Below are positions 2,468 to 5,484 of a stretch of 5,484 bases of DNA, one piece after another. The notes beneath the pieces were generated by a model. It saw nothing but the letters and a program-made list of their open reading frames with translations, was not told the DNA's origin and ran no database searches. The stretch lies in the sequence record MK791318, one strand, 5' to 3'. Made by a program: the position numbers and the translations under genes. Positions within the stretch are counted from its first letter, which is position 1. Each line of letters begins with the position of its first letter. Source of the DNA: Escherichia phage Lilledu.

Positions 2468-3754
2468 ATGTCTAATGTTCAAACTTCCGCATCTCGTGAC
2501 GCAATTGACTTATCACATCTGGTCTTCAACACTGGCGCTATTGGTCGCCTTAAAGTCGCGTCATGGACTCCTGTTATCGCTGGTGATTCTTTCCAGCTTG
2601 ACGCTGTTGGTGCTTTACGCTTATCCCCTCTGCGTCGCGGCTTGGCTATTGACTCAACTGTTGATTACTTCACTTTCTACATTCCACACCGTCATATCTA
2701 TGGTGATGCATGGATTCAATTTATGAAAACTGGCGTCGCTGCCGCTTCTCTTAACCCTGTAACTACTGGCGAATACGTTGACAGCGCCTCTTATCTTGGT
2801 GTAATCCCTTCTGCTGATGGCAAGGTTCCCAAGTTCCTGCACCAAGGCTATCTCAATATTTACAATAACTACTTCAAAGCCCCTTGGATGGCTGACCGTA
2901 CTGAGGCAAACCCCTCCAACTTAAACGACGACGACCGTCGTCACGGCTTCCGCTGCTGCCACTTAAAAAATATCTGGTCTGCGCCTCTTCCTCCTCAAAC
3001 GGAAATTACCCGCGCTATGACTACTGGCGCTACCTCCATTGATATCATGGGTCTTCAAGCTGCCTACGCCCAACTTCATACTGACCAAGAACGTGACTAC
3101 TTCATGCAACGTTACCGTGACGTAATCTCTTCGTTCGGTGGCAAAACTCACTATGACGCTGACAACCGTCCTCTTCTGCTTATGCGCTCTAACTTCTGGG
3201 CTTCTGGCTATGACATTGACGGTACTGACCAAACCTCATTAGGTCAATTCTCTGGTCGTGTCCAACAAACATTCCGCCACTCTGTTCCTCGCTTCTTCGT
3301 ACCGGAACACGGCGTTATTATGACTCTTCAACTCGTACGCTTCCCGCCTACCTGCACTGAGGAAACTCACTATCTCGTCGGCAAAGGCGCACTAAACTAT
3401 ACTGACCTTGCGGGTGATCCAACTCTTTACGGTAACTTACCGCCTCGCGAAATCGAAATGAAAACTCTCTTCCGTGGCGCTGCTGGCTCTACTGAAAAAA
3501 TCAAAATTGCCGAAGGGCAATGGTATCGCTATCATCCTTCCTACGTTGATGGACAATATCACAACCTTCAAGGCTTCCCGTTCATCCAAAATGGTCCAAC
3601 TGGCAACATGGAAAACCGTGTACTGATTGACCATAAAAAATACGACGAATGCTTCCAATCACTTCAATTAACTCACTGGAATGCCCAGGCTAAATACAAT
3701 GTCACTGTATATCGACATATCCCGACCACACGTGATAGCATCATGACTTCTTAA
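2468..3754 (+). CDS. F: Major capsid protein F, 428 aa
   Basis: ORF 2468..3754 with AAGGA at 2457-2461. The product is strongly similar throughout to phiX174 F (MSN.QT...DLSHL.F..G.IGRL......TPVIAGDSF..DAVGALRLSPLRRGLAIDSTVD.FTFY.PHRH.YG...I.FMK.GV ... HLKNIW.APLPP.TE..R.MTT..TSIDIMGLQAAYA.LHTDQERDYFMQRY.DVISSFGGKT.YDADNRPLL.MRSN.WASGYD.DGTDQTSLGQFSGRVQQT ... TTRDSIMTS). Confidence 0.97.
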   Translation: MSNVQTSASRDAIDLSHLVFNTGAIGRLKVASWTPVIAGDSFQLDAVGALRLSPLRRGLAIDSTVDYFTFYIPHRHIYGDAWIQFMKTGVAAASLNPVTTGEYVDSASYLGVIPSADGKVPKFLHQGYLNIYNNYFKAPWMADRTEANPSNLNDDDRRHGFRCCHLKNIWSAPLPPQTEITRAMTTGATSIDIMGLQAAYAQLHTDQERDYFMQRYRDVISSFGGKTHYDADNRPLLLMRSNFWASGYDIDGTDQTSLGQFSGRVQQTFRHSVPRFFVPEHGVIMTLQLVRFPPTCTEETHYLVGKGALNYTDLAGDPTLYGNLPPREIEMKTLFRGAAGSTEKIKIAEGQWYRYHPSYVDGQYHNLQGFPFIQNGPTGNMENRVLIDHKKYDECFQSLQLTHWNAQAKYNVTVYRHIPTTRDSIMTS

Positions 3755-3765
3755 AGCCTATAACG

Positions 3766-3803
3766 TGACAGGGGGAAAAATTTTAATTTTTCGCCCCCTG
3801 TCA
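3766..3803 (+). promoter_or_regulatory. F-G intergenic extended hairpin (terminator-like; candidate complementary-strand initiation / primosome assembly structure)
   Basis: TGACAGGGGG (3766-3775) pairs with CCCCCTGTCA (3794-3803). The stem extends through AAAAA (3776-3780) / TTTTT (3787-3791) with a 2-nt CG bulge and a TTTTAA loop. It lies in the ~99-nt F-G intergenic gap, the location of the F-terminator hairpin and complementary-strand priming signals in phiX174/G4-type phages (established knowledge; the function here is inferred). Confidence 0.6.
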
Positions 3804-3853
3804 GGTTGAACAAGCGCAAGCGCGTTAGCTACCTAACTATAAGGACTACTCAA

Positions 3854-4378
3854 ATGTTCCAGAACTTTGTCACTAAACACAATTCTCCTCAATTTACTAC
3901 TACTATCACAAAGGCTGTCACTCCCGCTGCGTTGGCTCCTATTATTAATACGCCAACCGTTGCGCGTGACAATCTATTTGTGAATCTAACTACTACCGCC
4001 CTGACTTCTCCGGGCGGTATCTCTGCTGTTGTCGCTATCGACAACTCCTCTCATACCGACAATCAGGTCGTTTCTGTTGCTGCCTCACTTTCTACTATCG
4101 GCAGCCTCGTACCTGTTCTTTGTCGGTTTGAATCTGCTACTGTCCCAACGGCTATCCCCGCCTCTGCGGTTACTTACTATCCGTTGGAATTTAAATCATC
4201 TGATACTACTCTGTCCGTTAAGGACTGCGTTACTGTCTCTACTCTTTCTCGCTCTGGCAATCCTGTTTATGTAGGTATTGCCCTTATTGCGAAATCATTT
4301 GTCGCCGGTACTGTGTACGGCTCCATCTCAATTAATCAGGTTGACCAAGAAATCACAACTCTGCAACCTCTCAAATAA
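3854..4378 (+). CDS. G: Major spike protein G, 174 aa
   Basis: ATG 3854-3856 preceded by AAGGA (3841-3845). The product begins MFQNFVTKHNSPQF... and ends ...SINQVDQEITTLQPLK, matching the conserved N- and C-termini of microvirus G proteins (phiX MFQTFISRHNS ... LQPLK). The middle is divergent and reads closer to G4-type G than to phiX G. The track ORF begins at 3806, but that start lies in the intergenic hairpin region and lacks an SD. Confidence 0.9.
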   Translation: MFQNFVTKHNSPQFTTTITKAVTPAALAPIINTPTVARDNLFVNLTTTALTSPGGISAVVAIDNSSHTDNQVVSVAASLSTIGSLVPVLCRFESATVPTAIPASAVTYYPLEFKSSDTTLSVKDCVTVSTLSRSGNPVYVGIALIAKSFVAGTVYGSISINQVDQEITTLQPLK

Positions 4379-4387
4379 GGAATCTCT

Positions 4388-5425
4388 ATGTTTGGTGCAA
4401 TCGCTGGCGGCATCGCCTCTACTCTTGCTGGCGGTCTAATGTCCAAACTGATGGGCGGCAATAAACAAGCCGCCCCTTCAACTCCCGGACAAGGCCTCTT
4501 CGCTACTCCTGAAACTACTATCTCTGCTGACAATGCAGGTATTCAATCTGTTATGCAGGGACCTAACCCGCCTAGCCCTGATCAGGCGGCTCCTACATTT
4601 ACCGAATCTGCCGTCTCCTCACTTAAGGATGCTGGCAAAGGACTCCTCGATGGTACTCTACAAGCTGGCGGCTCTGCTGTTCAACAAGCTCTTCTTAACA
4701 AAATTGGCCTCGGTGGCAAATCTGCTGCTGATAAAGGCAAGGATACTAAAGATTACCTTGCTTCTGCGTTCCCCGAGCTCAACCCGTGGGAACGCGCTGG
4801 CGCTGGTGCTTCCTCTGCTGGTATGGTTGACGCTGGTTTTGAAAACCAAAAGCAACTAACCAAAATGCAACTTGACAACCAAGTCAAAATCGCTAAGATG
4901 CAAAACGACACCCAAAAGGATATCGCTGGTATCCAGTCTGTCACATCACGCATGAATACTAAGGACTCTGTATATGCTCAAAACGAAATGCTCCAATACA
5001 ACCAAAAGGAATCTATGTCACGTGTTGGCGCTATTCTCGAAAACACAAGCCTCACCAAACAACAACAAACTTCTGAAATTATGCGCCAAATGCTTACTCA
5101 GGCTCAAACCTCAGGACAACACTTTACTAACGCTCAAATCCAAGAGCTTACTCGAAAAGTCGGTGCTGATATTGATGCTGTTCGTGCTAACACTGAACGC
5201 ACCCATGTAGAAACTGACCGCTCTAAACAGGAAGTCCAAAACTCACGTTACGCATCATCACAGGTCGGTAAAACCGCCAAGGACGTATCAAATGTCATTA
5301 GTGACGCATCTTCTGGTATTGTTGATTATTTTCGTGGCGTTGATAAAGCTGTATCGGACACTTGGAACAATTATTGGAAAGATGGTAAAGCCGACGGAGT
5401 AGGCTCCAACATGTCTCGCAAATAG
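4388..5425 (+). CDS. H: Minor spike / DNA pilot protein H, 345 aa
   Basis: ATG 4388-4390 with AAGGA at 4377-4381, overlapping the G stop. Gly/Ala-rich N-terminus [21 protein letters not shown], central block [51 protein letters not shown], and C-terminal ...[23 protein letters not shown] all align with phiX174 H. Stop TAG 5423-5425. Confidence 0.95.
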
Positions 5426-5426
5426 C

Positions 5427-5454
5427 TTGACAATCACATCATAAATCCTATCTA
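5427..5454 (+). promoter_or_regulatory. PA-like promoter upstream of gene A (across the circular junction)
   Basis: TTGACA at 5427-5432, 16-nt spacer, TATCTA at 5449-5454. phiX174 has TTGACA at the equivalent position just after the H stop. The -10 element is a weak match, so the exact hexamer is uncertain. Confidence 0.5.
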
Positions 5455-5456
5455 AT

Positions 5457-5478
5457 AGCCTCCATTAACACGGAGGCT
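5457..5478 (+). terminator. H-A intergenic hairpin (H terminator-like) whose 3' arm carries the gene A Shine-Dalgarno
   Basis: AGCCTCC (5457-5463) pairs with GGAGGCT (5472-5478) around an 8-nt loop, followed by TTTAACA and then ATG at position 1 of the circle. phiX174 has the homologous GCCTCC...GGAGGC hairpin followed by a T-run and the A start. The U-tract here is only 3 nt, so intrinsic termination may be inefficient. Confidence 0.6.
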
Positions 5479-5484
5479 TTAACA

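Follow-up and report, generated by a model that had tools for sequence, protein, structure and literature searches.

A probable phiX174-type primosome assembly site in the F-G intergenic region of Escherichia phage Lilledu, with relatives beside plasmid replication origins

Conversion of the + strand of phiX174 to duplex DNA is established as a primosome-dependent process. The primosome or PriA binding site has been placed at the hairpin between genes F and G (PMC3606162; PMC5778457; PMC8246471), and a complete mutational scan of the phage describes this hairpin as a PriA site overlapping the terminator T_F, followed at 2353-2373 by a second, shorter hairpin in which mutations in both stems were detrimental (preprint 10.64898/2026.07.25.740675). 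One phiX174 record labels nucleotides 2308-2351 as "Complementary (-) Strand Origin of Replication". The G4 origin is built differently, from three stem-loops with a 5'-CTG-3' start located 3' of them, and is primed by primase and SSB alone (PMC6783573). In the G4 record the RNA primer is annotated at 3970-3997 and the origin at 3998, inside a 136-nt F-G gap, and the alpha3-like phages carry a G4-related origin between G and H, their F-G gap being just 33-37 nt long. These annotations agree with the background given in an earlier note on the Lilledu sequence, according to which the F-G region holds a PriA-dependent site in phiX174 and hairpins read directly by DnaG in G4. In small plasmids, palindromic ssi elements near the origins aid lagging-strand priming (PMC6854812; preprint 10.1101/2022.12.05.519187; PMC5935869).

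The stretch of DNA analysed here (the window, 5484 bases) is the complete genome of Lilledu, a phage of the phiX174 family (Microviridae, Bullavirinae). Genes A (1-1635), C (1632-1892), D (1889-2344), J (2344-2430), F (2468-3754, stop codon 3752-3754), G (3854-4378, ATG at 3854) and H (4388-5425) are all encoded on the + strand which, following established Bullavirinae biology, is for that reason taken as the packaged strand. The F-G gap, with 99 nt (3755-3853), is the largest non-coding gap, as had been noted earlier, since the J-F, G-H and H-A gaps have only 37, 9 and 59 nt. The closest records are those of the Escherichia phages lillemer (98.1%), Lilleto, Lilleput and MG1, then SECphi17 (93.7%), followed by Salmonella phage PJNS002 and the G4-like ID2, ID18 and G4, with approximately 79-83% identity over the aligned parts. 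At the protein level A, D and H form a G4-like backbone, A being 85% identical to its G4 counterpart and 66% to that of phiX174. The F protein is divergent (79% to PJNS002, 74% to phiX174 and 67% to G4) and the G protein very divergent, with 40-51% identity to everything (ID18 51%, G4 41%, phiX174 40%). The earlier note had described F as phiX-like and G as G4-like; the former holds in that F is nearer to phiX174 than to G4, although by a modest margin, while the latter does not agree with the identities of G.

The F-G intergenic region would accommodate the whole priming element plus the ribosome-binding site of gene G. Its main feature, hairpin 1 (3762-3807, + strand), is a 46-nt interrupted hairpin of 19 bp supported by the predicted fold, by an inverted repeat (arms 3762-3780 and 3789-3807 according to the repeat finder) and by homology to phiX174. 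In the single-stranded DNA fold, AAC at 3762-3764 closes the structure with GTT at 3805-3807, G3765 and G3804 remain unpaired, and a 16-bp stem is formed by 3766-3781 with 3786-3791 and 3794-3803. The stem is interrupted by a CG bulge (3792-3793), and the loop, TTTA at 3782-3785, falls inside a conserved TTTTAA. An interrupted hairpin of about 15 bp had previously been proposed at 3766-3803; its G5/C5 core and A5/T5 extension are as described, but the stem has 16 bp there, plus the three outer pairs. The 99-nt gap folds with a minimum free energy of -20.7 kcal/mol, compared with -9.4 +/- 2.2 kcal/mol in dinucleotide shuffles (z = -5.0), and none of 200 shuffles was equally good. Its centroid fold consists of the hairpin alone, at -16.6 kcal/mol, and in a 50-nt sliding fold of the + strand hairpin 1 is the most stable local structure of the genome (-16.6 against -14.0 kcal/mol for the next one). 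The runner-up, at 3996-4045 within gene G, comprises CCGCCC..GGGCGG followed by GTTGTCG..CGACAAC.

Folding of 3755-3853, which confirmed the stable hairpin at 3762-3807, also predicted a second short hairpin at 3809-3826 (+ strand), directly 3' of the first, conserved and absent from the earlier note. Hairpin 2 is the counterpart of phiX174 nucleotides 2353-2373. Its outer pairs are A3809-T3826, A3810-T3825 and C3811-G3824, after which an AA bulge leads to a GC-rich mini-hairpin that can be drawn as GC-GCAA-GC or, in an alternative register, as GCG-CAAG-CGC. The hairpin is contained in a nearly invariant block, GGTTGAACAAGCGCAAGCGCGTTAG (3804-3828, + strand), defined by the invariant columns of the phage alignment and recurring in plasmids. 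A third small hairpin, GTTAG/CTAAC at 3824-3837, is kept in ID2 and was left out of the element because it is missing in ID18, PJNS002 and phiX174. Further downstream on the + strand, AAGGA at 3841-3845, 8 nt before the ATG, reads as the likely ribosome-binding site of gene G; AAGGA or AGGAG occurs at the equivalent place in the relatives present in the phage alignment, and the motif belongs outside the priming element. An Rfam scan of the whole genome at E <= 1 returned no family.

A blastn search of the 99-nt gap against 50,697 phage records matched 176 of them. Among the matches listed, nearly all records other than those of close relatives are phiX174-clade genomes, and phiX174 itself is matched at 2305-2371, always in the F-G gap, with approximately 77-79% identity and E values of 1e-5 to 5e-4. 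The labelled phiX174 origin at 2308-2351, 44 nt long, is the counterpart of Lilledu 3762-3807, which strengthens the earlier proposal that the Lilledu hairpin is a candidate initiation site for the complementary strand. The records of the Gequatrovirus phages ID2/FL76 and ID18/WA14, and that of PJNS002, contain no annotation in the F-G gap. On alignment the Lilledu gap goes with the phiX174 element and not with that of G4, so the case of a region aligning to neither does not arise.

The resemblance to the phiX174 primosome assembly site (the n'/factor Y/PriA site or ori(-), nucleotides ~2301-2373) extends from sequence to architecture. Both elements lie between F and G on the same strand and, across 70 nt of approximately 77-79% identity, share a hairpin of about 45 nt closed by AAC...GTT, an A/T-rich apical stem with a TTTTAA tip, and a 3' block, GGTTGA-CAAGCG-AAGCGCG-TAG, that folds as a second short hairpin. 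The Lilledu gap differs very little from that of ID2, and the gaps of Lilledu, ID2 and phiX174 have in common TATAACG, the apical AAAAATTTTAATTTTT and this same 3' block. The differences are local: the lower stem is fully paired in Lilledu (TGACAGGGGG/CCCCCTGTCA), whereas phiX174 has a GA/AG internal loop; the 2-nt CG bulge is a Lilledu feature; hairpin 2 has one extra base in Lilledu (GCAA) compared with phiX174 (GAA); phiX174 has a T-run after hairpin 2 (GGTTTTCTG) that Lilledu lacks; and Lilledu has 16 nt less spacer between the F stop codon and the element. The 5' arm of hairpin 1 in phiX174 includes the hexamer AAGCGG, which does not occur anywhere on the + strand of the Lilledu genome. 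In the older literature this hexamer is described as common to PriA sites. It is not conserved in the homologous family, since the 5' arms of ID18 and PJNS002 lack it as well; in Lilledu the related AAGCGC occurs twice in hairpin 2, at 3812 and 3818.

ID18 and PJNS002 carry a Lilledu-like architecture at the same F-G place, with stems that differ by compensating changes. Four versions of the element can be distinguished in the phages (Lilledu/ID2, ID18, PJNS002 and phiX174), whose stem sequences differ while complementarity is kept; the AAC/GTT closing pairs, the TTTTAA tip and the 3' block are the invariant parts of the phage alignment. The module common to the phages can be written as AAC-hairpin 1-GGTTGA[A/C]CAA-mini-hairpin-GCG[G/T]TAG. 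When the two-hairpin structure was imposed on nine phage sequences, 98.2% of the cells were paired, against 32-49% when the partners were slid by 1-3 columns. Compensatory changes affected 10 of the 25 pairs, and the observed covariation was reached in none of 500 shuffles. In hairpin 1 alone, 9 of the 19 pairs showed compensatory changes among the phages, and 15 when the plasmid copies described below were included; in hairpin 2 the second outer pair covaries, being A-T in Lilledu and ID18 and C-G in phiX174 and PJNS002. With the plasmids added (12 distinct sequences), 16 of the 25 pairs were compensatory and the covariation score was 0.664, compared with 0.174 in shuffles; the paired fraction of 95.7% in this set is inflated, as the phage-plus-plasmid alignment was fitted to the model structure. 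To judge from these alignments, the paired stems of the two-hairpin module are under selection, a signal that taken alone fits folded DNA or folded RNA.

A covariance model, R1, built from the nine phage sequences only, matches Lilledu 3755-3852 on the + strand with 102.8 bits (E = 6e-28). The - strand gives only 26.9 bits, contributed by the palindromic hairpin alone, so that the match is strand-specific. Matches obtained with nhmmer likewise support homology to phiX174 2305-2373. The model also recognized (E = 2e-4) a module variant at 2494-2574 of IMGVR_UViG_3300005306_000004, a divergent member of the Bullavirinae whose F is 68% identical; this variant has a GC-rich apex (CACGTCAG/CTGGCGTG), a phiX174-like GA/GA internal loop and GCGC-TTTA-GCGC as hairpin 2. 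Related loci sought in viral contigs through the G protein were not found, G being too divergent, and the search by F alignment worked. A pattern scan for the module found only two loci in metagenomes. In genome contigs the scan yielded 121 identical phiX174 copies and three useful new variants (L070, L081 and L140); L079 and L144, from the same scan, were chance matches without a hairpin. About 120 contigs of approximately 5.4-5.5 kb, from unrelated bacterial and archaeal assemblies (L044-L163), contain the exact phiX174 F-G sequence and are sequencing-control contamination deposited within those genomes.

Outside phages, the 99-nt gap matched the Erwinia piriflorinigrans plasmid pEPIR37 (79.7% over 71 nt, E = 9e-7) and, further, plasmids of E. 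tasmaniensis (pET46), E. rhapontici and Winslowiella. Used in turn as a blastn query, the pEPIR37 copy matched 59 plasmids, including 34 from Pantoea, 10 from Escherichia, 5 from Erwinia and 5 from Pectobacteriaceae, the match covering little beyond the invariant block in about 40 of the 59 listed rows. Model R1 located complete copies, with both hairpins, in pEPIR37 (2995-3089, E = 1e-14), pET46 (2989-3084), E. coli pEc631_3 (2453-2550, E = 6e-10), Pantoea p81147 (2494-2567) and an IncFII plasmid (L043, 2452-2549). It did the same in a Pectobacterium contig and in a small Mob_Pre plasmid contig (E = 1e-18), and gave a weak match to Leclercia pCOL314-5 (14.7 bits, E = 0.035). The block equivalent to 3804-3828, as seen in phages and plasmids together, reads GGTTGA[A/C]CAA..GCG[G/T]TAG. 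The plasmid copies differ from the phage module in that the TTTTAA tip is often missing and the mini-hairpin, GCC-GNA-GGC instead of the GC-GAA-GC or GC-GCAA-GC of the phages, has one extra C-G pair. The generalised module is then AAC-variable hairpin-GGTTGA[A/C]CAA-GC(C)-GNA/GNNA-(G)GC-GCG[G/T]TAG.

The location of these copies is informative. In the five annotated plasmids with E <= 1e-4 the copy occupies non-coding DNA adjoining the annotated replication-initiator gene, and in three genome contigs the neighbours of the module are, respectively, Mob_Pre; ParA/ParB; and G2P, TrbL and HicB. In pEPIR37 and pET46 it is placed between a divergent parA-like gene and repE and is followed directly by a DnaA box (TTATCCACA in pEPIR37, TTATACACA in pET46), AT-rich DNA that contains GATC, and a series of four or five iterons upstream of repE, an arrangement that is the F-type origin layout. 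In pEPIR37, pET46 and p81147 the copy is found upstream of the rep gene, between divergent genes, and in that orientation no annotated gene is read into it; as it precedes rep and does not follow an annotated gene in these three plasmids, a replication role is favoured over a terminator. The plasmid ssi elements and phiX174-type primosome sites likewise stand by plasmid origins, and the module copies may be of this kind. The Pectobacterium brasiliense contig L140 has two copies in opposite orientation, at 5059-5154 (-) and 5674-5768 (+), about 520 nt apart. They flank a HicB-like gene, and the contig has genes for TrbL and for a G2P replication protein of filamentous-phage type as well; the pair may represent priming signals, one per strand.

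Taken together, homology, structure and position indicate that the F-G element of Lilledu is probably a primosome assembly site of the phiX174 type, at which synthesis of the complementary (-) strand would start in a PriA-dependent manner. The hairpin would be an ordinary member of the known family of phiX174-type sites, relatives of which appear beside plasmid replication origins too. According to the proposed scheme, the packaged + strand would enter the cell as single-stranded DNA and be coated by host SSB, whereas hairpin 1 (3762-3807) and the mini-hairpin block (3804-3828), by analogy with phiX174, would stay folded and escape SSB. PriA would bind the fork-like hairpin structure, PriB and DnaT would join, with PriC, and DnaC would load the helicase DnaB. 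While the complex moves down the template DnaG primase would lay primers, and DNA polymerase III would turn the single strand into the double-stranded replicative form. For PriA binding and the protein requirements of the Lilledu element we infer from phiX174 biochemistry what would apply.

The same hairpins probably form in the F-G mRNA also, the mRNA having the same sense as the + strand. They might then act in RNA only, as an intrinsic terminator T_F after F or as a stabiliser of the 3' end of the F mRNA that sets the F:G ratio, with priming taking place elsewhere. The phiX174 hairpin is indeed annotated as T_F, so that part of the conservation could stem from transcription, and the phiX174 F-G terminator blocks 20-40% of transcription; moreover, the alpha3-like phages, whose origin is between G and H, keep a small GC hairpin and a T-run in the F-G gap. 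Lilledu, however, has no T-run after either hairpin (GAACAAGC follows hairpin 1 and AGCTACCT hairpin 2, where phiX174 has GGTTTTCTG), and consensus scans for terminators and promoters found nothing on the + strand of the F-G gap. The sequence invariance of the loop, the closing pairs and the 25-nt flank is unusual for terminators, the copies of pEPIR37, pET46 and p81147 are placed, as described, where no annotated gene is transcribed into them, the module is missing exactly where a G4-type origin is present, and the Lilledu genome offers no other origin candidate. An exclusively RNA role is thus unlikely. A secondary one, as a weak terminator or mRNA end in the manner of phiX174 T_F, is possible but less supported, and the lack of the phiX174 T-run after hairpin 2 implies that any terminator role in Lilledu would be weaker or secondary.

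A conserved, strand-specific structure alone fails to name the protein that binds it. It could in principle serve as a DNA signal for another step, such as priming by RNA polymerase in the style of filamentous phages, packaging or condensation of the genome, or a secondary site for A/A*, and one non-phage copy is in fact found on the contig encoding the filamentous-phage-type G2P rolling-circle protein. Against such roles, no promoter-like hexamers are present in or around the hairpin, theta plasmids (RepE, RepB, IncFII), which have no packaging step, carry the module, and a biochemical role is defined for the homologous phiX174 site (PMC5778457; PMC8246471; preprint 10.64898/2026.07.25.740675), making this explanation very unlikely.

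The G4-type origin (F-G in G4; G-H in alpha3, St-1 and phiK) would serve the same step of the life cycle as the Lilledu element, also uses hairpins that exclude SSB and, in G4 itself, occupies the same F-G locus. It differs in having an unrelated sequence, three hairpins over ~130-135 nt, a CTG 3' of the hairpins and no need of PriA. A profile of 12 G4/alpha3-type origins, searched with nhmmer --max and filters off, detected all G4-like and alpha3-like loci at E <= 1e-34 and found no match in the Lilledu genome at E <= 10. The Lilledu element has two hairpins instead of three stem-loops, and the sole CTG of the gap starts at 3798, base-paired in the 3' arm of hairpin 1. Hence, that DnaG recognises SSB-free hairpins directly and starts a single primer in Lilledu, as the G4-like backbone (with its A protein 85% identical to that of G4) and the shared F-G position might suggest, is extremely unlikely for an element without similarity to the G4/alpha3 profile, with two hairpins and not three, with its only CTG (3798) paired and not 3' of the stem-loops as in G4 (PMC6783573), and with clear homology to the phiX174 site instead. 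The earlier note had left the priming mechanism open; phiX174 homology and the missing G4-type origin favour the PriA-dependent mechanism, as far as sequence can.

The two types of origin are distributed as alternatives. In the Bullavirinae loci compared, wherever an origin could be identified it was either the phiX174-type module or the G4-type origin, never both. Among GenBank phages, 176 records match the phiX174-type module and 365 the G4 origin, and no record appears in both sets among the matches listed (60 of the 176 and 40 of the 365). The record of Lilleen (MK629526.1), a close relative, has neither type: at the junction 3751/3752 it skips the counterpart of Lilledu 3739-3893, so that F loses its end, G its first 40 nt and the gap between them disappears entirely, with the result that the F and G annotations overlap. 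Lilleen was rejected as a natural viable deletion mutant; since both coding sequences are truncated along with the gap, an artefact of assembly is the likelier cause, probably a dropout at the hairpin.

The module seems to have a history of its own. The 67-nt core at Lilledu 3762-3828 is 100% identical to ID2 3837-3903 (83 of 84 positions in a wider core), while at the nucleotide level the flanking genes of ID2 are only 67% (F) and 51% (G) identical to those of Lilledu, and the ends nearest to the module 64% (last 200 nt of F) and 50% (first 200 nt of G). When genes are compared one by one, PJNS002 comes out nearest to Lilledu (A 87%, F 75%, H 84%), yet its core is just 78% identical. ID2 in turn is closest to ID18, with a core 76% identical to its own, and to G4, which has the other origin type. 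A cassette phylogeny so at odds with that of the neighbouring genes suggests horizontal exchange of a piece of less than 100 nt. The simplest reading of these comparisons would be that lineages have swapped a short non-coding cassette and that one origin type has thereby also taken the place of the other at this locus.

Since the origin module has its own history, gene affinities are a poor predictor of origin type, which is therefore unreadable from the genus of the phage or from neighbouring genes. Lille-type, ID2 and ID18 phages are accordingly predicted to need the PriA restart pathway like phiX174, despite genomes classed with or resembling that of G4, which needs primase only. The comparative set provides a compact definition of the module, separating invariant from freely covarying positions, and links the classic phage site to elements beside plasmid origins; it could help in annotating priming sites and in designing experiments on PriA recognition. 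A broader proposal, which we regard as possible rather than probable, is that one sequence family of mobile priming cassettes, each of less than 100 nt, is common to microviruses and to many Enterobacterales plasmids and rolling-circle elements, that in G4-like phages the cassette has been swapped with the primase-only origin at the F-G locus, and that the primosome would read the invariant mini-hairpin block and not the large varying hairpin. Assignment of the mini-hairpin block as the part that is read agrees with the phiX174 scan, in which hairpin 2 is mutation-sensitive.

Two of the remaining intergenic gaps of Lilledu also contain hairpins. In the J-F gap a GC hairpin, GGGGC-TTCG-GCCCC (2437-2452), is followed by AATTT; it resembles the terminator that phiX174 has downstream of J, and also the small hairpin found between F and G in alpha3. 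The H-A gap (within 5427-5480) contains a perfect TTGACA hexamer (5427-5432) and the hairpin GCCTCC-ATTAACAC-GGAGGC (5458-5477), followed by TTT. The GGAGG in the 3' arm of the latter stands just ahead of the gene A ATG, an arrangement that matches the phiX174 terminator T_H overlapping the ribosome-binding site of gene A.
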